From positions 3,267 through 67,266 of the forward strand of contig JAFSWG010000033.1 in NCBI GenBank assembly GCA_017444645.1: a stretch of 64,000 nucleotides of DNA, read 5' to 3'. Made by a program: the position numbers and the translations under genes. This document shows positions 7,241-16,902 of the stretch, piece after piece (position 1 is the stretch's first letter; every line of letters starts with the position of its first letter). The notes beneath the pieces were generated by a model. That model saw only the letters and a program-made list of their open reading frames with translations. It was not told the origin of the DNA and did not search any database. Origin of the DNA: Acholeplasmatales bacterium (GTDB lineage: Bacteria > Bacillota_I > Bacilli_A > Acholeplasmatales > Anaeroplasmataceae).

Positions 7241-9145
7241 ATGGCCAGTTTGAGTTTGAAACACATTTACAAAGTATATGATAATGGATTTAAAGCAGTA
7301 AACGATTTTTCTATGGATATTGCAGATAAAGAATTCATCGTTTTCGTAGGTCCATCAGGATGTGGTAAATCAACTACATTAAGAATGATTGCAGGATTAG
7401 AAGAAATCACTGCAGGCGAATTAAAAATTGGTGACGTTGTAGTTAATAACTATGCACCAAAAGACAGAGATATAGCAATGGTATTCCAAAGTTATGCATT
7501 ATACCCACACATGACTGTATATGATAACATTGCATATAGCTTAAAAATTTCTAAAGTTCCTAAAGAGGAAATCGATAAAAGAGTAAGAGAAGCAGCTGAA
7601 AGTTTAAATATCACTGAATATTTAGATAGAAAGCCCAAAGCTTTATCAGGAGGACAACGTCAAAGAGTTGCCCTAGGTCGTGCGATTGTAAGAAACCCTA
7701 AGGTATTCTTACTAGATGAACCATTATCAAATCTAGATGCTAAATTACGTGCATCAATGAGAAGTGAAATTACTAAACTTCATCAAAGACTACAAACTAC
7801 ATTTATTTATGTAACACATGATCAGGTTGAGGCCATGACTATGGGTACTAGAATTGTAGTTATGAGAAGTGGTTTTGTTCAACAAATTGACACACCAAAA
7901 AATATTTATAATTACCCTGCAAATAAATTTGTTGCTGGTTTTATCGGAACTCCACAAATGAATTTCTATGATGCAGTTTACGATGTAAAAGAAGATAATA
8001 TTTATCTTGATATGGGCTTTGCTAAGATTAGATTATTAAAAGATTTCTTACCAAAGATTAAAGATCAAGTAATTGTATCTGGTAAAAAGGTAGTTGTAGG
8101 TGTTAGACCAGAAAATATTTATTTATACAATGATAAAATGGATAGCGATAAGCTAGACATTATTGATGCTAAAGTTACTGTAGTTGAAGCATTAGGTTCT
8201 GAAACTATAGTTTATGCTGATTTAGATTTAGAAAATGAAAGAGGAATTACAGATAATTCAACAGAAGTTAGAATTAAAATGTTATCTAACTTTGATGTTA
8301 AAGTCGGAGAAACTGTTAAGATTGCTGTAGACCTAGAAAGAATTCACTTATTTGATGCTGAAAGCGAAGAATCAGTTATTCAACGTATTCCAGATGTATT
8401 CTCTAGTGATGCTAATATTGAAGGTAATAAGCTTTCTATTTATGGAAAGGAAATTACATTACCTGAGGCAGTATTAAGCCAAGTACATGATGGATATGTA
8501 TCAGTTAACGTTCCTACTGCAGCAGTAGAATTAGGTGGAAAATATAGTGGTGAAATTGTTCATAAGGATGTTGTAGATACTCAAAATCTATATTGGATTC
8601 AAAGTGGAAAGAGTATTGTATTCCTTAAGACTCCATTAGACGTAAATCTTGAAGGCAAAGTTAATTTTGATATTAATATTGCAGCTATGAAATTATCTGG
8701 TGAAGATTATGTAGCACATAGAATCAATTTATTAGCTAAATTACCTGTTCAAGCTGTTTTACCTTCAAAAGAACAATTACAATTTAAGAGTAATGATGAT
8801 TTATTTAATGTTCCATTTGATATTGCTCAAAAAATGTTTAATACAAAAGGAAAGAAGTTATTAAAGACAAATATTTCAGTATTATTCAACACAGACAATG
8901 ATGGACCTCTTCATTTTAAGGCAAAAGTTCTAAGCATTTTAGATTATGGTGATTTTAAATATGCAAAGGTTGATTACTTTGGAAACCAATTCTTTGTAGT
9001 AGATAAAGGATATAATTCTGGAGACGAAATTACTGTTAATCTAGATTTAGATGATGCGTTAATTACAGATGAAGATATGAATATCATTCTTGTTGGTCAA
9101 GAACCAAGAAGATTACAAAAAATTGATAATTCAAAAGCTGAATAG
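7241..9145 (+). CDS. msmK: Carbohydrate ABC transporter ATPase, MsmK/MalK type, with long C-terminal extension
   Basis: GPSGCGKST, LSGGQRQR, LLDEPLSNLDAKLR, YVTHDQ, FVAGFIG; 634 aa versus about 370-380 aa typical. Confidence 0.9.
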   Translation: MASLSLKHIYKVYDNGFKAVNDFSMDIADKEFIVFVGPSGCGKSTTLRMIAGLEEITAGELKIGDVVVNNYAPKDRDIAMVFQSYALYPHMTVYDNIAYSLKISKVPKEEIDKRVREAAESLNITEYLDRKPKALSGGQRQRVALGRAIVRNPKVFLLDEPLSNLDAKLRASMRSEITKLHQRLQTTFIYVTHDQVEAMTMGTRIVVMRSGFVQQIDTPKNIYNYPANKFVAGFIGTPQMNFYDAVYDVKEDNIYLDMGFAKIRLLKDFLPKIKDQVIVSGKKVVVGVRPENIYLYNDKMDSDKLDIIDAKVTVVEALGSETIVYADLDLENERGITDNSTEVRIKMLSNFDVKVGETVKIAVDLERIHLFDAESEESVIQRIPDVFSSDANIEGNKLSIYGKEITLPEAVLSQVHDGYVSVNVPTAAVELGGKYSGEIVHKDVVDTQNLYWIQSGKSIVFLKTPLDVNLEGKVNFDINIAAMKLSGEDYVAHRINLLAKLPVQAVLPSKEQLQFKSNDDLFNVPFDIAQKMFNTKGKKLLKTNISVLFNTDNDGPLHFKAKVLSILDYGDFKYAKVDYFGNQFFVVDKGYNSGDEITVNLDLDDALITDEDMNIILVGQEPRRLQKIDNSKAE

Positions 9146-9157
9146 AATAGTTTTAAA

Positions 9158-9184
9158 GGAGATGCTAAGGCATCTCCATTTTAC
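9158..9184 (+). terminator. Intrinsic terminator after msmK
   Basis: GGAGATGC-taag-GCATCTCC then ATTTT. Confidence 0.75.
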
Positions 9185-9189
9185 TTATA

Positions 9190-9252
9190 TTGAAAAAAAA
9201 CTGTAAATATGATAAAATCTTTACATAATATTTATTAGTTCTAAACTAATAA
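9190..9252 (+). promoter_or_regulatory. Sigma-A promoter of the STAS/alarmone operon plus downstream inverted repeat
   Basis: TTGAAA 9190-9195, 17 nt, TGaTAAAAT ending 9218; TTATTAGTT-cta-AACTAATAA 9232-9252. Confidence 0.68.
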
Positions 9253-9275
9253 TTCTAACCCTGGAGGTAATCTTT

Positions 9276-9578
9276 ATGGAAATAAAGAAAGAAATAAAAG
9301 AAGATACATTAAATGTAGTAGTGTCAGGGAGATTGGATACTAATACAGCACCAGAACTTGAATCATCAATAAATGACGATATTGTTGGCATTAATGATTT
9401 AAATTTTGATTTTGCAAAATTAGATTATATTTCAAGTGCTGGATTAAGAGTCATTTTAAAATTTCATAAGCAAATGACATCTGTTGGTGGTACATTAACT
9501 ATTTATCATCCAACTGATGAGGTTCTAGAAGTATTTGATATGACAGGATTCTCTACATTTTTAACTATTAAGGAGTAA
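9276..9578 (+). CDS. STAS-domain anti-anti-sigma factor type protein (SpoIIAA/RsbV family)
   Basis: GRLDTNTAPEL, LDYISSAGLR phospho-acceptor loop, VLEVFDMTGF; 100 aa. Confidence 0.93.
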   Translation: MEIKKEIKEDTLNVVVSGRLDTNTAPELESSINDDIVGINDLNFDFAKLDYISSAGLRVILKFHKQMTSVGGTLTIYHPTDEVLEVFDMTGFSTFLTIKE

Positions 9579-9582
9579 TTAT

Positions 9583-10680
9583 ATGGATTTACATTGCGAA
9601 ATGATATTAGAGCAATATAAACAAAAAAAGCCTTTATTTATAAAAGTTAAAGATATTGCCCTTCAGGAATTAAATAAATATGTTAAAGAATTTGGAACTA
9701 TTGTTAATAGTGTAGAGGGTCGAGTAAAAGAAGAAAAGTCATTAGCTGGTAAGCTGGAATTAAAAGGCTATAAATACCAATCAATTGACGATATAACAGA
9801 TATTGTTGGTACTAGAGTAGTTACTTTTTATAATGATGAAGTAGATAAATTTGCAGCTAAGATTGAACAAAATTTTGATGTAGATTGGGATAATTCAATC
9901 GATAAAAGAAAAATGCATAATATAGATCAATTTGGTTACATGTCATTACATTATATTTGTAGAATACCAAAGGAATTATATTATGATCCAGAAAATCCAG
10001 AAATTAATAATGTTAGATTTGAAATTCAATTAAGAAGTATTTTACAACATGCGTGGGCTGTTGTACAACATGATACCGGATATAAAACAGATGTAGAAAT
10101 ACCAAAGGAATATTTAAGATCTTTAAGCAGATTATCAGGATTACTTGAACTTGTTGACGAATCTTTCTGTCAATTACGTATTTCAATTGATGATTATAGA
10201 AGAAGAGTAAAACAAGTTGTCAAAAATGGTAAATTTGAAGATATTGAGCTTAATGGTGATTCATATTCAGCATATCTAGATAATGGTGGATTTGAGGCTT
10301 TAAACAAGCATATAGCCGCAATTCAAAATATGGAAATTGAAGATGTATCATTAAAAGCTTTCTTAAGAGTATTTAAATCATTTGGATTTACTACATTAAA
10401 GCAATTAGATGATTTCGTTAAGGATTATTCAGATGTTGCTTATGAATTTGCAGTTAGACAATTCTCAGGAAGAGATTTAGATATTATTACCAGTGCGGCA
10501 GGACCTTTAGCTTTATGTGTAGTTTATGTATTATCTAAAGACATGGGTGAAAAGGTAGTTAAGATGATATTAGATGCTGTATATGGCCCAAGAACAATGA
10601 ACGAAAGGACTGCGGCTAGATTAACAAAAATTGGTAAGAGTATGGGTTTAATCAAGGTTGGTGATGATAGTGAAGAATAG
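9583..10680 (+). CDS. Small alarmone synthetase (RelA_SpoT synthetase domain) with C-terminal extension
   Basis: GRVKEEKSLAGK, DITDIVGTR, FGYMSLHY, FEIQLRSILQHAWA..QHDTGYK; no HD, TGS or ACT domain; about 150-aa extra tail. Confidence 0.92.
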   Translation: MDLHCEMILEQYKQKKPLFIKVKDIALQELNKYVKEFGTIVNSVEGRVKEEKSLAGKLELKGYKYQSIDDITDIVGTRVVTFYNDEVDKFAAKIEQNFDVDWDNSIDKRKMHNIDQFGYMSLHYICRIPKELYYDPENPEINNVRFEIQLRSILQHAWAVVQHDTGYKTDVEIPKEYLRSLSRLSGLLELVDESFCQLRISIDDYRRRVKQVVKNGKFEDIELNGDSYSAYLDNGGFEALNKHIAAIQNMEIEDVSLKAFLRVFKSFGFTTLKQLDDFVKDYSDVAYEFAVRQFSGRDLDIITSAAGPLALCVVYVLSKDMGEKVVKMILDAVYGPRTMNERTAARLTKIGKSMGLIKVGDDSEE

Positions 10681-11251
10681 AGATTTAGATACATCACTAG
10701 TTGATAAAGCTATTGTTTATGCAACAAAATATCATGCAAATACAAGAAGAAAGGGTAAAAATATTCCTTATATTTTACATCCTCTTGAGGCTATGAGTAT
10801 TGTTGCTACTATAACTGATGATCAAGAACTAATAGCTGCTGCAGCACTTCATGATTTAATAGAAGATACTGACGCAACATATGAAGATATTGAAAATGAA
10901 TTTGGTAAGAGAGTTGCTGATATTGTTTTAAGTGAATCTAATAATGCTTTACCAAATCATCAAGAATTAAGCTGGCATCAAATTAGGGAGATGACAGCAA
11001 ATAATTTAAAGCATTCTTCAATAGACTGTAAAATAGTTGCTTTAGGAGATAAATTATCTAATATGCGAGCTATTTATACAGATTATAAATTGTTAGGTAA
11101 TGAGCTTTGGAATAGATTCAATGAAAAGAATCCTTTAGAGCACAAATGGCGTTATGTTGAGTTAACTAAATGTTTTGATGAATTAGTTGATACTAATGCA
11201 TATAAAGAATTTAAGCATTTAGTTGAAAAGGTGTTTGATGGTATAGAATAA
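10664..11251 (+). CDS. Small alarmone hydrolase (Mesh1/SpoT-like HD domain)
   Basis: H....RKG..IPYILHP, AAALHDLIEDT, ALGDKLSNMR; start uncertain (ATG 10664 or GTG 10670); overlaps synthetase stop. Confidence 0.88.
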   Translation: MIVKNRDLDTSLVDKAIVYATKYHANTRRKGKNIPYILHPLEAMSIVATITDDQELIAAAALHDLIEDTDATYEDIENEFGKRVADIVLSESNNALPNHQELSWHQIREMTANNLKHSSIDCKIVALGDKLSNMRAIYTDYKLLGNELWNRFNEKNPLEHKWRYVELTKCFDELVDTNAYKEFKHLVEKVFDGIE

Positions 11252-13116
11252 TGGATAAGCATAATAGAAGAATAAGTGATGAAATATACAAGAAAAACGA
11301 AATAGATGCGAATAAAGCATTAACAAAAGGATGCGTTTTTTCAGCTGTAATTATTTTTATTGTGTGGATATTATATTTGTCAGGTGCATTTAGTGTATCA
11401 AAACAAACATTAACTGTTGTTTCTATTTTCTTTCCTATTTTAACGTTTTTACTATTATCTACACTTCTATATTCAAGAACTAAATTAGTAGAAAAACCTG
11501 GATATAAATTTTTCTTAATTATTCAATTTATATTAGTTACATTTGCAGTTAATGTTTTAATACCAAAGCATGGAATACTATTATGGGCAACTTGTATATT
11601 ATTAGTTAATCATTATTATAGCCCTAAGTTATCAATGATTACATTTATATGTGTTGCAGTATTTATGTTTATTGGTATATATTTTGGAATGTTATTAGGT
11701 GAATGGGATGCTAATTTGATGAATGGGGCAGGAATTTTAACATTACCTACTGGAGAAACATTTGATGTAGATAGTGCTTCATTTAGACAAAGAGTTGAGT
11801 GGCTAGATTATCTTAGAGATGAAAAAGGCGACAATAGATTCTTGAAAGCTTTTATATATTATTATTTAGCTAGATTTATGATATTAGTTATTGTAGCTAA
11901 TATTGGTTATGCATTATCAAAAAGAACAATGAAATTATTATTGTTAGAAGTTGATAGAGCAGAAAATGAACAAAGAATAGAATCAGAGCTTAGTGTTGCT
12001 ACATCAATTCAATATAGTGTATTACCAAAAGAATTAAATGATGATAATAAAGATAATATATTTGGATTAATGGAGCCAGCTAAAGAAGTTGGTGGAGACT
12101 TATATGATTATTTTTATATTGATGAGGTTCATATTGCGTTAGTAATTGCCGATGTATCTGGTAAAGGTATTCCTGCAGCATTGTTCATGATGAAAACAGA
12201 AGCTTTGATTAAATCATTAACTTTAGCATTTAAGCAAGATACAGCAATGATAATGAATAGAATAAATGTATCTTTATGTAGTAATAATGAAGAAAGTGTA
12301 TTTGTTACATGTTGGTTAGGTATTTTAAATCTAGCAACTGGTGAATTAAAGTATACAAATGCTGGTCATAATAAAATTCTTATTTTCCATAATGGAACCC
12401 CAAAGTATACTACAGATAAACCTGGTGTAGTACTAGGCGCATTCGAAGGCTCTAAATATGTGGAAAACACAGTAAATTTAGAGAAAAACGATAAAATAGT
12501 TTTATATACAGATGGTGTAACAGAAGCTCATAATTTAAACAATGAATTATATGGAGAAAAGAGATTATTAAAGTATGCAACTGTTAATAACGGATTATGT
12601 CCAAAGGATTTCGTTACTAAGCTTAGAAAAGATGTTGAATCATTTTCTAATGGAGCCCCACAATTTGATGATATAACTATTTTAATGTTTAAATATGTTA
12701 ATGAAAATAGTATTATTCAAAGTAGAATCTTTGAGGCAGATGTTAAAGAATTAGATAATCTATTTGATTATTCATCTGCGTTATTAAGATTATTAGAGTT
12801 CTCTAATAGAGATATAATAATGATTAATACAGCATTAGAAGAAATATTCGTTAATGTTGCAAATTATGCCTATGAAGAAAAAGGAACAGTAGAAATAACA
12901 TTATCAAAATTCAAAGATCATGTAACATTTGTATTTAAAGATAGTGGAAAGCCATTTAATCCATTAGATAAAGTTGATCCTAATATAACTGCTAAGAGTG
13001 AAGAAAGAGAAATTGGTGGTTTAGGTATCTTTATGGTTAAGAAGATAATGGATTCTGTTAAATACGAATATGTTGATAATCAAAATGTATTAACTTTAAT
13101 TAAATATAAAAAATAA
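11251..13116 (+). CDS. Membrane-bound PP2C (SpoIIE/RsbU-type) phosphatase fused to RsbW/SpoIIAB-type HATPase serine kinase
   Basis: About six N-terminal TM helices; PP2C motifs VGGDLYD, IADVSGKG, NAGH, YTDGVTEA, DDIT; kinase motifs ALEEIFVNVANYAY, DSGKPFNP, GGLGIFMVKKIMD. Confidence 0.92.
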   Translation: MDKHNRRISDEIYKKNEIDANKALTKGCVFSAVIIFIVWILYLSGAFSVSKQTLTVVSIFFPILTFLLLSTLLYSRTKLVEKPGYKFFLIIQFILVTFAVNVLIPKHGILLWATCILLVNHYYSPKLSMITFICVAVFMFIGIYFGMLLGEWDANLMNGAGILTLPTGETFDVDSASFRQRVEWLDYLRDEKGDNRFLKAFIYYYLARFMILVIVANIGYALSKRTMKLLLLEVDRAENEQRIESELSVATSIQYSVLPKELNDDNKDNIFGLMEPAKEVGGDLYDYFYIDEVHIALVIADVSGKGIPAALFMMKTEALIKSLTLAFKQDTAMIMNRINVSLCSNNEESVFVTCWLGILNLATGELKYTNAGHNKILIFHNGTPKYTTDKPGVVLGAFEGSKYVENTVNLEKNDKIVLYTDGVTEAHNLNNELYGEKRLLKYATVNNGLCPKDFVTKLRKDVESFSNGAPQFDDITILMFKYVNENSIIQSRIFEADVKELDNLFDYSSALLRLLEFSNRDIIMINTALEEIFVNVANYAYEEKGTVEITLSKFKDHVTFVFKDSGKPFNPLDKVDPNITAKSEEREIGGLGIFMVKKIMDSVKYEYVDNQNVLTLIKYKK

Positions 13117-13134
13117 AATAAGTTATTAAGTAAT

Positions 13135-13164
13135 AAATGGACAACTCAAGCGTTGTCCATTTTT
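13135..13164 (+). terminator. Intrinsic terminator closing the STAS/alarmone operon
   Basis: AAATGGACAAC-tcaagc-GTTGTCCATTT plus T-run. Confidence 0.85.
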
Positions 13165-13171
13165 CTCCTAT

Positions 13172-13227: not shown

Positions 13228-15651
13228 TTATAAAGCGATATTTACATCAACTTCAGTAAGATCCTTATTGTATGGAATTACTTTTCCATCAATGGCCTTA
13301 TTATCTATAGTCATCAGATACTTACCTGAAGCGTTGTTAGTAATTGTAATATTGTATTTAACTCCTCTAAATACTCTTGTAACCTTAGCATGCTTAATTT
13401 CTTTTGGAAGATGCGGATCAATCATTAATCCATCATAATCTGGTTTAATACCTAATATTGCTTGGCTTGCTGCATACATTGTCCAAGAAGCAGTACCAGT
13501 TAACCAGCTATTCTTAGCTTCTCCATAGTTTTTAGCATCTCTACCTGCAATTGTTTGTGAATAGATGTAAGGTTCAGTTTTATGGATTTCTGATACCTCC
13601 TCTAAATATGCAGGACAATTTCTTCTATATACATCAAATGCTCTTTCATTGTTTCCAATTACTGTATTTGCGATAACAATCCATGGATTATTATGGCAGA
13701 ATACTGAGCCATTTTCTTTATATCCCATTGGATATGATGATACTTCCCCAAGTTCAATGTGATATTCTTTGTAACATGGATGTAGAATTTCTACACCATA
13801 ATCATTTGTTAAAATCTTTTCAACTGAATCAAGTGCTTTTTTACCATATCCTAAATCTTCACCGATTCTAGCCATTGTACAGAAGCCTTGTGGTTCAACG
13901 AAGATTTGACCATCTTCACATTCGTGGCTTCCAACTTTGTGTTCGAATGCATCATATGCTCTAACGAACCATTCTCCATCCCAACCATATTTAACAGTAG
14001 CATCTTCAACAGATTTAACTTCAGCTAAAATCTTTTTAGCTTCGTCATTATTACCAATATGGTTTAAGATAGTTGCAAATTCTTTTCCATATAATACAAA
14101 CATACCAGCGATGAATACTGATTCAGCCTTTCCTGATTCGAAATTAGAAGCAGTTTGGAATGATTCACCTGGTGTTTTAGAGAAGCAGTTTAAATTTAAG
14201 CAGTCATTCCAATCGGCTCTACCAATTAGTGGTAAACCATGTGGTCCTTTATGAGTAATAATATAATTTAAAGAAGCTCTTAAATGGTCGATTAATGGTT
14301 TTTCCGAACCTTCCTTATTGTTGAATGGAGTAGGGTCATTTAAGATTGTATAATCGCCAGTTTCTTTGATATATTGGCTTACTGCATCAATTAACCAAAG
14401 TGGGTCATCATTAAATCCTCCACCAATATCAGCATTACCACGCTTTGTAAGTGGTTGATATTGATGGTAAGTAGAACCATCTTCAAATTGGATTGATGCG
14501 ATATCTTTAATACGCTCTCTAGATTTTTCAGGAATTAGGTGTAAGAATCCTAATAAGTCTTGGCAGCTATCTCTGAAGCCCATACCACGACCAGTTCCTG
14601 ATTCATAATATGATGCAGATCTTGACATATTAAATGTAACCATACATTGATATTGATTCCAAATGTTAACCATACGGTCAAATTTTTCATTATCAGATTT
14701 AACATTTAATGTAGAAAGAAGATCTACCCATTTAGTCTTTAGCTCGTTGAAAGCTTTTAATACTTGTTCTTTAGTAGCATATTTCTTTTGTAATTCATAT
14801 GCTTTTTCTTTATTGATAACATGAAGCTTTTCAAATTTCTTATCATCTTCATTTTCAATATATCCTGTTTGGAAAATAACAGTTTTAGACTCACCTGGTT
14901 TAATTTCTAGATTAAACATATGTGAAGCAATAGGTGCCCATCCAGAAGCCTTAGTATTATAAGATGTCTTATTTAATACAGCAGAAGGATCACACCATGA
15001 ATTATATAATCCAATAAATGTATCTAAATCAGAATCATAACCATCATGTTTAATATTAGTATGGTAGAAAGCATAATGATTACGTCTTTCTCTATATTCT
15101 GTTTTATGGTAAATAGTAGTATCATCAATTTCAACTTCACCAATATTCCAGTTTCTTTGGAAATTAGTTTGATCATCAACTGCGTTCCATAAACACCATT
15201 CGATTACGCCATGAAGTGTTACGTTTTTAGTTTCTTTACTATTATTTGTTAAAGTTAATTGATTTATTTCACATAAATCCTTTAATGGAACGAAACATAA
15301 TAATTCAGCCTTTAAATTATTTTTTTCACTTTCAAATACTGAATATCCTAAACCATGTCTACATTTATAACTATCAAGTTTTGTCTTCATTGGTAGGAAA
15401 CCAGGATTCCAGATTGTTCCATTATCATTAATATAATAATATCTTCCACCATAATCTCTTGGAACGTTATTGTATCTAAATCTAGTAATTCTTCTAAGCT
15501 TAGCATCTTTGTAGAACATATAACCTCCACAAGTATTACTCATTAAGCTGAAGAAGCCGTCTTGTCCAAAATAATTTATCCAAGGAAGTGGTGTATTATA
15601 ATTTGTTATTACATATTCATATTCTTTGTCGTCAAAATGTCCAAATTTCAT
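13228..15651 (-). CDS. GH94 glycoside phosphorylase, probably cellobiose phosphorylase
   Basis: MKFGHFDD..EYVIT..TPLPWINY, GRGMGFRDSCQD, GRADWNDCLNL, KNSWLTGT; 807 aa. Confidence 0.9.
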   Translation of the reverse strand: MKFGHFDDKEYEYVITNYNTPLPWINYFGQDGFFSLMSNTCGGYMFYKDAKLRRITRFRYNNVPRDYGGRYYYINDNGTIWNPGFLPMKTKLDSYKCRHGLGYSVFESEKNNLKAELLCFVPLKDLCEINQLTLTNNSKETKNVTLHGVIEWCLWNAVDDQTNFQRNWNIGEVEIDDTTIYHKTEYRERRNHYAFYHTNIKHDGYDSDLDTFIGLYNSWCDPSAVLNKTSYNTKASGWAPIASHMFNLEIKPGESKTVIFQTGYIENEDDKKFEKLHVINKEKAYELQKKYATKEQVLKAFNELKTKWVDLLSTLNVKSDNEKFDRMVNIWNQYQCMVTFNMSRSASYYESGTGRGMGFRDSCQDLLGFLHLIPEKSRERIKDIASIQFEDGSTYHQYQPLTKRGNADIGGGFNDDPLWLIDAVSQYIKETGDYTILNDPTPFNNKEGSEKPLIDHLRASLNYIITHKGPHGLPLIGRADWNDCLNLNCFSKTPGESFQTASNFESGKAESVFIAGMFVLYGKEFATILNHIGNNDEAKKILAEVKSVEDATVKYGWDGEWFVRAYDAFEHKVGSHECEDGQIFVEPQGFCTMARIGEDLGYGKKALDSVEKILTNDYGVEILHPCYKEYHIELGEVSSYPMGYKENGSVFCHNNPWIVIANTVIGNNERAFDVYRRNCPAYLEEVSEIHKTEPYIYSQTIAGRDAKNYGEAKNSWLTGTASWTMYAASQAILGIKPDYDGLMIDPHLPKEIKHAKVTRVFRGVKYNITITNNASGKYLMTIDNKAIDGKVIPYNKDLTEVDVNIAL

Positions 15652-15670
15652 AAATTGCTCCCTTTCATTT

Positions 15671-15728
15671 CGAAAACGTTTAAGTAACTCTTTTCCCTAA
15701 TTATATAGATTATTTTTTTCGAAATCAA
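15671..15728 (-). promoter_or_regulatory. GH94 promoter and LacI-type operator
   Basis: Minus-strand TTGATT (15728-15723), 17 nt, TATAAT (15705-15700); operator CGAAAACGTTTAAG 15671-15684 lies just downstream of it. Confidence 0.75.
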
Positions 15729-15818
15729 TATAAAATTTAATAAAAAGGATGAAAATTTTTCAAAAAAGTGTAAAAAATCTAAAAAATTATTTTTTTTCGA
15801 AAATTTTTCAAAAAAGTA

Positions 15819-15868
15819 TTGACATTTAAAAAACGCTTTCCTATAATAAAAGTACGAAAACGTTTAAG
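15819..15868 (+). promoter_or_regulatory. lacI/ABC operon promoter and LacI-type operator
   Basis: TTGACA 15819-15824, 17 nt, TATAAT 15842-15847; CGAAAACGTTTAAG 15855-15868; weaker AAAAACGCTTTC in the spacer. Confidence 0.85.
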
Positions 15869-15891
15869 AAGTTTAGAAAAATGGTGATATC

Positions 15892-16902
15892 ATGGTCAAG
15901 ATTAAGGACATAGCCGAGCGATGCGGACTGTCAATTGCCTCTGTTAGTAAGGCATTGCATGGCGAATCAGATCTAAATCCAAAAACTGCAGAGTATATCA
16001 GAAGTGTTGCAAGGGAAATGGGGTATGTTCCTAACGCATCAGCAAGATTACTTAAAACAAAAAGAAGTTATAACGTTGGTGTTCTATTCGTAGACGAAAC
16101 GAGTTCTGGTCTAGAACATGAATACTTCTCATCTATTTTAAATTCTATAAAGAACGAGAGTGAGAAGCATGGATATGATATAACTTTTATTTCTCACCAT
16201 TTTGGAAAAAACTACTTAACATTTTATGAGCATGCTAAATATCGTAATGTAGACGGAGTGATAATCGCATCAGTTGATTTCAAGGATCCAGAAGTTATTC
16301 AGCTTGTGGAAAGCGAAATTCCAACTGTGACGATCGACTACGAATTTAACGATGTCGCGTCTGTTGTATCAGATAACGTACAGGGTGTAAGAGACATAGT
16401 TAATTTCTTAGTCGAAATGGGACATACAAAAATCGCATTTATCACTGGCGACGATACTTCAGTAACTCAAAAAAGAGTTGCAAGCTTTTATAAGACTTGC
16501 GGCGAGAATAAGATATCAGTAAATGATGAATATATTAAGAAAGGAAGGTACCATATACCGAAAGTAAGTGGAGAAGCGACAAGAGAATTATTAGCTTTAG
16601 ACGAAAAACCAACGGTAATTATGTATCCAGATGATTATTCACTTTTGGGTGGGATAACTGAGATAGAGAAACATGGACTTAAAGTTCCTGAGGATATAAG
16701 TGTTGTTGGTTACGATGGAATTAAGCTTTCAAGGTTACTTAGACCTATAGTTACAACTTATGTTCAAAATTCTACTGAGATTGGTATTCAAGCTACTAAA
16801 AAACTAATTGACCTAATTGAAAATCCAAGGACTACAATTGCCGATAGAACCTTAGTCATTGGAGGACTTCAACAAGGCGAAACAGTAAGAAAAATTAAGT
16901 AA
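15892..16902 (+). CDS. LacI-family transcriptional regulator
   Basis: IKDIAERCGLSIASVSKAL HTH, GYVPNASARLL hinge, VPEDISVVGYDG. Confidence 0.96.
   Translation: MVKIKDIAERCGLSIASVSKALHGESDLNPKTAEYIRSVAREMGYVPNASARLLKTKRSYNVGVLFVDETSSGLEHEYFSSILNSIKNESEKHGYDITFISHHFGKNYLTFYEHAKYRNVDGVIIASVDFKDPEVIQLVESEIPTVTIDYEFNDVASVVSDNVQGVRDIVNFLVEMGHTKIAFITGDDTSVTQKRVASFYKTCGENKISVNDEYIKKGRYHIPKVSGEATRELLALDEKPTVIMYPDDYSLLGGITEIEKHGLKVPEDISVVGYDGIKLSRLLRPIVTTYVQNSTEIGIQATKKLIDLIENPRTTIADRTLVIGGLQQGETVRKIK

Follow-up and report, generated by a model that had tools for sequence, protein, structure and literature searches.

Which protein does a partner switch control when no sigma factor is found with it? 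This question is raised by an operon in a stretch of 64,000 nucleotides (nt) from a rumen bacterium of the Acholeplasmatales (GenBank assembly GCA_017444645.1, contig JAFSWG010000033.1, positions 3,267 to 67,266), which we call the window and whose positions are used throughout. In the list of open reading frames (ORFs), four close-packed genes on the forward strand (9276-13116) encode a STAS protein, a putative alarmone synthetase, an HD-type hydrolase and a membrane protein that carries both a phosphatase and a kinase domain. A first interpretation made from the letters and their translations (the sequence-only reading) had proposed a membrane-sensed phosphoswitch whose output is alarmone synthesis or hydrolysis. 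Our follow-up supports this proposal by conserved synteny, by a search that found no fitting sigma factor, by the fact that the operon holds the sole STAS and RsbW-type kinase genes of the genome, and by a modelled contact. We thus consider it probable that the module is a partner-switching phospho-switch with an alarmone enzyme, and not a sigma factor, as its output. What we observed directly is the domain content, the intact motifs, the conserved linkage and the lack of a cognate sigma factor in the assemblies searched.

The genes are arranged as follows. The STAS gene (9276-9578, 100 amino acids, aa) is separated by a gap of 4 nt from the synthetase gene (9583-10680, 365 aa). The hydrolase gene ends at 11251 and starts either with the ATG at 10664 (195 aa), i.e., with an overlap of 17 nt with the synthetase gene, or with the TTG at 10658 that opens the ORF (197 aa, overlap of 23 nt). 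It is joined by a TAATG overlap (11249-11253) to the gene of the membrane protein (11251-13116, 621 aa). ORF coordinates, gap and overlaps hence bear out the tight coupling of the four genes that the sequence-only reading had described.

Next, we examined the parts of the putative switch. The STAS protein scores 60.5 bits with the Pfam STAS model and 69 bits with TIGR00377 (anti-sigma-antagonist superfamily; cut-off 53.45). Its acceptor loop reads DYISSAGLR and includes Ser53 and Ser54, which are invariant among 35 relatives together with Gly56, Leu57 and Arg58. That is, the phospho-acceptor loop is intact, as had been claimed. Ser54 presumably is the counterpart of SpoIIAA Ser58. The membrane protein starts with a region that matches no known family in Pfam (aa 1-225; 11251-11925), for which hydropathy suggests about 6 transmembrane (TM) helices within aa 29-220 and a K/R-rich N-terminus on the inside. 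It is followed by a SpoIIE-type PP2C phosphatase domain (aa 294-481; 12130-12693; 167.5 bits) with the motifs GGD, DVSGKG, TDG and DD, and by an RsbW/SpoIIAB-type serine kinase domain of the HATPase_c_2 family (aa 494-618; 12730-13104; 75.9 bits) with the boxes ExxxN, DSG and GGLG. Pfam, motifs and hydropathy agree on what the sequence-only reading had seen here, i.e., a multi-TM protein with both PP2C and RsbW/SpoIIAB-type kinase domains.

The synthetase consists of two parts. Its catalytic domain (aa 1-205; 9583-10197) has the RelQ/RelP fold and matches RelA_SpoT with 61.9 bits over aa 46-170 (Pfam cut-off 27). It carries the motifs RVKxxxSLxGKL, DIVGTR, GYMSLH and EIQLR, and Arg47, Lys49, Ser53, Lys57, Asp73, Gly76, Arg78, Gly118, Tyr119, Ser121, His123, Glu147, Gln149 and Arg151 are invariant among 30 relatives. 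These residues (motifs RxKxxxSxxxK, DxxGxR, GYxSxH and ExQxR) are presumably catalytic, given the RelQ/RelP structures. The model of aa 1-205 was matched by Foldseek to 5dec (SAS1/RelQ) with a TM-score of 0.82 on the target. With the profile of the family, chains of RelP/RelQ reach 59-68 bits (aa 5-204) and CapRel reaches 19 bits, while no other chain of the toxic small alarmone synthetases (toxSAS) matched it at E <= 1. By score, motifs and fold, the protein is assigned to the RelA/SpoT homologues (RSH), class of the small alarmone synthetases (SAS), as the sequence-only reading had it; (p)ppGpp would be its product. An orthologue of RelQ (YjbM) was considered and rejected (NCBIfam NF053588, 55 bits vs. 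a cut-off of 320). The same genome also encodes a separate long Rel (751-aa frame) and a RelQ/RelP-like enzyme of 238 aa.

The second part is the C-terminal domain (C-domain; aa 208-365; 10204-10680), which we predict from the structure model and its conservation to be the docking site of the STAS protein. Modelled alone, it is predicted confidently (predicted local distance difference test, pLDDT, 90; predicted template modelling score, pTM, 0.85). No Pfam family covers it, Foldseek reports nothing below E = 2 from the PDB, the best Z of VIA-align among 48,161 chains is 4.3 and Atlas feature matches reach at most 0.78, such that no fold was assigned. When its profile was compared to 1.84 billion representative proteins, only 126 clusters were found. 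Nearly all of them are fragments or proteins of about 350-360 aa in which the domain lies C-terminal to the synthetase. As far as such profile and fold comparisons can tell, this is a new protein domain, and one that appears nearly restricted to this synthetase family. Among 94 sequences, the near-invariant residues are Gln293 (0.90), Asp298 (0.98), Asp300 (1.0) and Ile301 (0.99). In one metagenomic protein from a single contig (P0134, 422 aa), the domain is found at aa 273-420 and is preceded not by a synthetase domain but by a weakly matching amidohydrolase-like region; P0134 could be an artefact of gene calling or assembly, or else another protein that hosts the domain.

For the hydrolase, the HD_4 model of Pfam scores 68.2 bits (cut-off 27.2), and the His, His-Asp, Glu-Asp and DKLSN motifs were located. 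Metal site and Glu-Asp pair (His39, His63, Asp64, Glu67, Asp68, Asp129, Asn133) are invariant among 30 relatives. The nearest solved structure is 7qoe (E 1.8e-23) from the bacterial small alarmone hydrolases. The earlier assignment to the HD alarmone hydrolases therefore stands, while its label "Mesh1-like" turns out to be loose. With this, the catalytic motifs said to be recognisable throughout the operon have all been located and are intact.

We then searched for a sigma factor that could be the target of the switch. None is encoded in the operon. The assembly (1.59 Mb, 69 contigs, 73.6% complete) holds three genes with a Sigma70_r2 match, namely two of extracytoplasmic function (ECF) type, each with its own large neighbour, and a SigH-like gene adjoining rlmB. 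The model of SigB/F/G-type sigma factors (TIGR02980, cut-off 234) yields at best 24 bits in this genome, complete to the extent given, and at best 140 bits, in primary-sigma-like frames, in five other carrier genomes, which are incomplete assemblies as well. That is, the check for SigB/SigF-type sigma factors suggested by the sequence-only reading found none at cut-off, in line with its statement that the window has no sigma factor. The operon furthermore holds the only STAS gene, the only HATPase_c_2 (RsbW-type kinase) and the only SpoIIE-type PP2C of the genome.

To what extent the four families belong together can be seen from other genomes. A profile scan found relatives of the synthetase in at least 578 species genomes, which belong to Bacillota, Bacteroidota, Fibrobacter and Akkermansia of gut and rumen. 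The 80 best carriers are metagenome-assembled genomes (MAGs) from gut or rumen and belong to Acholeplasmatales, Erysipelotrichaceae, Lachnospiraceae, other Clostridia, Fibrobacter, Bacteroidales and Akkermansia. Among all loci, those nearest to this operon stem from MAGs of rumen Acholeplasmatales/Bacilli. A protein-only scan gave 18 loci, and all of those with enough flanking sequence encode the same four families. For a broader census, we built profiles from the first matches and scored all ORFs in 96 loci, including this window. Besides the synthetase (96), we counted hydrolase (77), STAS (74), HATPase_c_2 (71), PP2C (55), an APH-type kinase (52) and Y_phosphatase3 (28). If the census is restricted to loci flanked by 5 kb or more on each side, 61 remain, and the respective numbers are 50 for STAS and for the hydrolase, 48 for the kinase, 38 for PP2C, 35 for APH and 19 for Y_phosphatase3. 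The four-gene form without APH or Y_phosphatase3 is a minority among them (4/61).

Gene order varies strongly. This window and its close relatives show STAS-synthetase-hydrolase-PP2C/kinase, one group of Bacteroidales has PP2C/kinase-STAS-synthetase-APH-hydrolase-phosphatase and another has synthetase-hydrolase-APH-PP2C/kinase-STAS. In further forms of the cassette, PP2C and kinase are split into separate genes, or hydrolase and APH form a single fused protein. The sensor part changes, too (multi-TM here, dCache in Bacteroidales). That the linkage survives so many rearrangements speaks for the cassette being a working unit. The sequence-only reading had named unconserved synteny as an outcome that would speak against it; instead, the linkage is kept across four phyla despite the reshuffling. 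Some weak backing for the linkage comes from two fusions in metagenomic sequences, i.e., kinase-synthetase-C-domain (P0145) and synthetase-C-domain-hydrolase (P0229), each seen on a single contig, such that an artefact of gene calling or assembly is possible. A third fusion, again from a single contig, joins hydrolase, a STAS-like domain and APH (L033:2018-3844, a Lachnospiraceae MAG).

Several variants of the cassette were noted along the way. The STAS-like middle domain of the L033 fusion (about 100 aa) reads IDFSGLR, i.e., it has Phe at the acceptor position and is thus not phosphorylatable. Long hydrolase-APH fusions (563-636 aa) occur in this locus as well as in L031, L065, L075 and L088, with an extra length that would fit a STAS-like domain; such a domain might tether the hydrolase to the synthetase. 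The APH-family protein of the fuller cassette (aminoglycoside/choline kinase-like, about 276-290 aa) is found in L005 (7035-7910) and 51 other loci, and neither this window nor this genome encodes one. Four loci of Bacteroidaceae MAGs (L048, L055, L059, L063) show the order kinase-STAS-Y_phosphatase3-synthetase with no PP2C in reach, while other loci have both phosphatases; in the lineages of these four, Y_phosphatase3 may replace PP2C as the STAS phosphatase. Fibrobacter genomes (G001-G005; loci L108-L117) have 2 or 3 STAS genes of the family each, adjoining a stand-alone kinase or a PP2C-kinase fusion. Finally, a lone synthetase of 357 aa (36% identity over 93% of the query) was found in Bacteroides finegoldii (NZ_OY725946.1; L118:5989-7062). 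Its gene, flanked by terminase and HNH genes, is on the opposite strand of a circular phage-like record of 28 kb. The protein has neither STAS nor hydrolase encoded beside it and lacks the Asp-x-Asp-Ile motif in its C-terminal part. It may be a CapRel-like fused module.

How could the switch reach the enzyme? The sequence-only reading had suggested structure prediction of complexes as a check, and we modelled synthetase, hydrolase and STAS protein as three chains with their own alignment each and scored STAS as the partner. The model reached a score of 0.76, while the best of 3 controls reached 0.13, and it places STAS with its Ser54 face on the synthetase C-domain. A value of 0.76 is attained by 58/80 solved complexes and by 2/110 mismatched pairs, a calibration that is only rough for three chains with own alignments. 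The model runs agree in at least 92% of the contacts, and the partner pLDDT is at least 89. In the modelled interface, STAS residues 53-54, 57-58, 61 and 81-100 face synthetase residues 253-259, 293-309 and 330-346; Ser54 packs against residues 299-301, and STAS has no contacts with the hydrolase. STAS is thus predicted to dock on the C-domain at Asp298-x-Asp300-Ile301. Because the C-domain resembles no solved structure, it is improbable that the score merely reflects a complex known from such structures. The core contact residues (Gln293, Asp298, Asp300, Ile301) are at the same time the most conserved ones of the C-domain in the 94 sequences mentioned above, with a variable interface rim. The phage-borne relative of B. 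finegoldii, which stands without STAS, is also without the motif.

From these parts, the following mechanism can be put forward. The membrane protein would sense a signal via its six-TM region, and this would determine how strongly its PP2C phosphatase acts relative to its RsbW-type kinase. The two domains would act on Ser54 of the STAS protein and thereby fix the share that is unphosphorylated. Unphosphorylated STAS would then dock via its Ser54 face on the C-domain at Asp298-x-Asp300-Ile301 and change the activity of the synthetase, be it by activation or inhibition. The kinase domain is the textbook partner of STAS proteins. Free STAS would divide between kinase domain and C-domain, which would switch the synthetase. 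Upon phosphorylation, STAS would probably be released because Ser54 would then carry its phosphate opposite the two invariant aspartates Asp298 and Asp300. The co-transcribed HD hydrolase would drain the product and in this way reset the signal and guard against overshoot.

A number of points weigh against this reading. The STAS-synthetase contact is a model prediction. When the whole interface is considered, it is not more conserved than the other C-domain residues (0.59 vs. 0.62, p = 0.72), and a co-evolution test on distance matrices (mirror-tree partial correlations) did not single out the pair of STAS and C-domain. The modelled STAS face is also the one that binds kinases, such that its conservation is expected anyway. 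In Fibrobacter, synthetase and hydrolase stand alone while STAS and kinase genes of the same families are located elsewhere in the genomes, such that the switch might act on different or further targets. Furthermore, the assembly is only about 74% complete and the primary sigma factor itself was not detected; the absence of a SigB/F-type sigma factor is therefore not proven. The distribution is patchy (5/24 congeners, 1/25 high-quality relatives), a pattern that would also fit an accessory or conflict module.

The last points lead to alternatives. One of them is a conventional anti-sigma partner switch with a sigma gene at another locus or in the quarter of the genome that the assembly lacks, and with alarmone genes that are merely co-transcribed. 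It would be in agreement with the incomplete assembly, in which even the primary sigma factor escaped detection, and with the unlinked switch and alarmone genes of Fibrobacter. We nevertheless rate it as very unlikely: against it stand the linkage held through many rearrangements in four phyla, the fusion proteins of switch parts with alarmone enzymes and the modelled STAS-synthetase contact, and none of the six carrier genomes has a SigB/F/G-type sigma factor at the model's cut-off. More weight has to be given to a variant in which the kinase domain is the effector, i.e., it binds or phosphorylates synthetase or hydrolase, and STAS is only the antagonist that pulls the kinase off, as in sigma switches. 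This is the classical RsbW/SpoIIAB logic, P0145 has HATPase_c_2 fused directly to the synthetase, and the distances of kinase and C-domain correlate as well (partial r 0.32). Still, the high-scoring model puts STAS itself on the C-domain, and some loci (L033) keep a STAS-like domain, synthetase and hydrolase with no HATPase_c_2, which makes an effector role of the kinase appear improbable to us.

A different view concerns the purpose of the module. It could be a regulated growth-arrest or anti-phage module of toxSAS type, in which a toxic synthetase (producing (pp)pApp, excess (p)ppGpp or pyrophosphorylated tRNA) is kept in check by the hydrolase as antidote and the switch serves as trigger. 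The overlap of synthetase and hydrolase genes corresponds to the FaRel/ATfaRel layout (PMC7229694), and the sole PADLOC match, candidate PDC-S33, falls on the catalytic domain of the synthetase. Relatives of this domain with 27-46% identity occur on plasmids and phages, including the lone Bacteroides copy, and the patchy occurrence among close relatives goes along with related copies in four phyla. Yet RelP/RelQ are far closer to the family than CapRel is, and no further toxSAS structure matched. Furthermore, a search of 50,697 phage records found no full-length relative, the phage-borne one lacks the STAS-contact motif, the operon's neighbours are sugar-use genes and not mobile or defence genes, and an extracytoplasmic dCache or multi-TM sensor suggests environmental sensing. 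On balance, we deem such a toxSAS-like role unlikely. A bolder extension of the phospho-switch reading starts from the additional genes of the fuller cassettes. It posits a self-contained messenger pathway whose nucleotide is not the usual (p)ppGpp but, e.g., (pp)pApp or a further-modified product that the APH-type kinase and Y_phosphatase3 would make and unmake. Extracellular conditions would gate this pathway, with STAS docking on the new receiver domain of the synthetase as the means. This is speculative, and we would give it only a small chance.

With a partner-switched alarmone enzyme as the favoured reading, we compared the operon to known systems. Alarmone synthesis is known to receive input from the ribosome (RelA/Rel) and from a few proteins that partner with long RSH, while RelQ/RelP, which are ribosome-independent synthetases, are governed by transcription or allostery. 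If the reading is true, a serine phospho-switch with a membrane or periplasmic sensor would link external signals directly to a stress nucleotide. HsbR unites PP2C with an RsbW-type kinase in a single chain, as does the sensor protein here. It is part of HptB-HsbR-HsbA-HsbD from Pseudomonas, which, like BgrU/BgrW/BgrV-BgrR from Sinorhizobium, is a partner switch with an enzyme as output (PMC7647112). Both differ from the operon in that their outputs are diguanylate cyclases, their input is a receiver domain or another sensor instead of a six-TM region, and no hydrolase partner is encoded.

A close parallel is SiaABCD of Pseudomonas aeruginosa, whose cyclase SiaD is activated when SiaC binds to it in the unphosphorylated state (PMC7647112; PMC8457831). 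In both systems, a membrane PP2C, a kinase and a small STAS-like protein are encoded in one operon with all other genes; that phosphatase and kinase govern the phosphorylation of the STAS-like protein, and that its unphosphorylated form binds and controls a messenger synthase, would be further parallels, here proposed. In contrast, the output of SiaABCD is a GGDEF diguanylate cyclase that makes cyclic di-GMP (c-di-GMP), while RelA/SpoT synthetase and hydrolase are the candidates here. In addition, phosphatase and kinase are fused in one protein here, the STAS protein is of the canonical anti-sigma-antagonist type with a Ser acceptor (SiaC uses Thr68), and the receiving domain on the enzyme is of no known family. 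The Bacillus switches RsbU/RsbV/RsbW and SpoIIE/SpoIIAA/SpoIIAB share the combination of PP2C, STAS with a phospho-serine loop and HATPase_c_2 kinase, but no sigma target was found here, and the equivalog models score clearly below their cut-offs (RsbW: 41.8 vs. 145; SpoIIAA: 51.8 vs. 114.75).

On the enzyme side, RelQ/RelP (SAS1/SAS2 of Firmicutes) share catalytic fold and motifs and provide the best PDB matches, while identity is only about 20-27% and the C-domain of 160 aa is extra here. As in FaRel/ATfaRel (PMC7229694), the synthetase gene is found in tandem with that of an HD hydrolase. CapRel is similar in total length and in having a regulatory C-terminal domain (a role that is predicted for the protein here), but the sequence similarity is weak (19 bits) and the C-domain fold does not match that of CapRel. 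Different from these toxSAS, the setting here is chromosomal and sensor-linked.

The sequence-only reading knew of no characterised system with this architecture. This holds for the alarmone output: a literature search of incomplete coverage found only SiaABCD-type and unrelated work and no paper that joins STAS or a partner switch to an alarmone synthetase, and the toxSAS census paper (PMC7229694) has no mention of STAS or PP2C. It does not hold for the principle, since partner switches that steer a nucleotide-messenger enzyme are already known from SiaABCD, HsbA-HsbD and BgrUWV-BgrR (PMC7647112, PMC8457831). That is, only the alarmone output is new. If confirmed, it would extend partner switching from c-di-GMP to alarmones, with the C-domain as a candidate reader of STAS phosphorylation. 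What our analysis adds is the Acholeplasmatales four-gene form, the modelled STAS/C-domain contact with its conserved motif, the family restriction of the C-domain, and the kinase-synthetase and synthetase-hydrolase fusions. Anaerobes of rumen and gut are common carriers of the cassette (Bacteroidales, Fibrobacter, Akkermansia, Acholeplasmatales, Clostridia); how they control their growth is of importance for the digestion of fibre and for the health of the host.

Finally, we considered the limits of the operon and its genomic setting (window G+C about 28%). The sequence-only reading had assigned it its own promoter and terminator, and candidate elements were located on the forward strand. On the 5' side, the limit is set by a hairpin (9158-9177) that resembles a terminator and belongs to the upstream ABC-ATPase gene. 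The hairpin is followed by a promoter-like site (9190-9218) that consists of TTGAAA, 17 nt, TG and TAAAAT (extended -10; 10/12 matches); this is a consensus match only, and the region has 39 such sites where 31.6 are expected by chance. Past the last stop codon, the hairpin GGACAAC-TCAAGC-GTTGTCC (13139-13158), followed by ATTTTT (13139-13168 in total), is likely the operon's terminator; it was read from the letters and is not listed by the scanner. Short metatranscriptome contigs (libraries of three or four studies) map with at least 95% identity to parts of all four genes, and 2 of them span the synthetase/hydrolase junction. Since DNA carry-over is possible, we do not use them as proof of expression; stretches without coverage are likewise uninformative.

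The Pfam matches of the neighbouring genes point to sugar use, and no mobile or defence genes are among them. An empty-site (insertion) test between the flanking ABC-ATPase and GH94 genes found no usable orthologue in the congeners, where the best ATPase matches have 51-54% identity over aa 1-381. The operon is placed between sugar-uptake and cellodextrin-use genes. Downstream, a minus-strand GH94 gene (cellobiose/cellodextrin phosphorylase-type) and then a LacI-family regulator are encoded (13228-16902). Upstream, the MalK/MsmK-like ABC ATPase (7241-9145) has 634 aa, of which aa 381-634 are without Pfam match, while its versions in congeners have only 367-392 aa.

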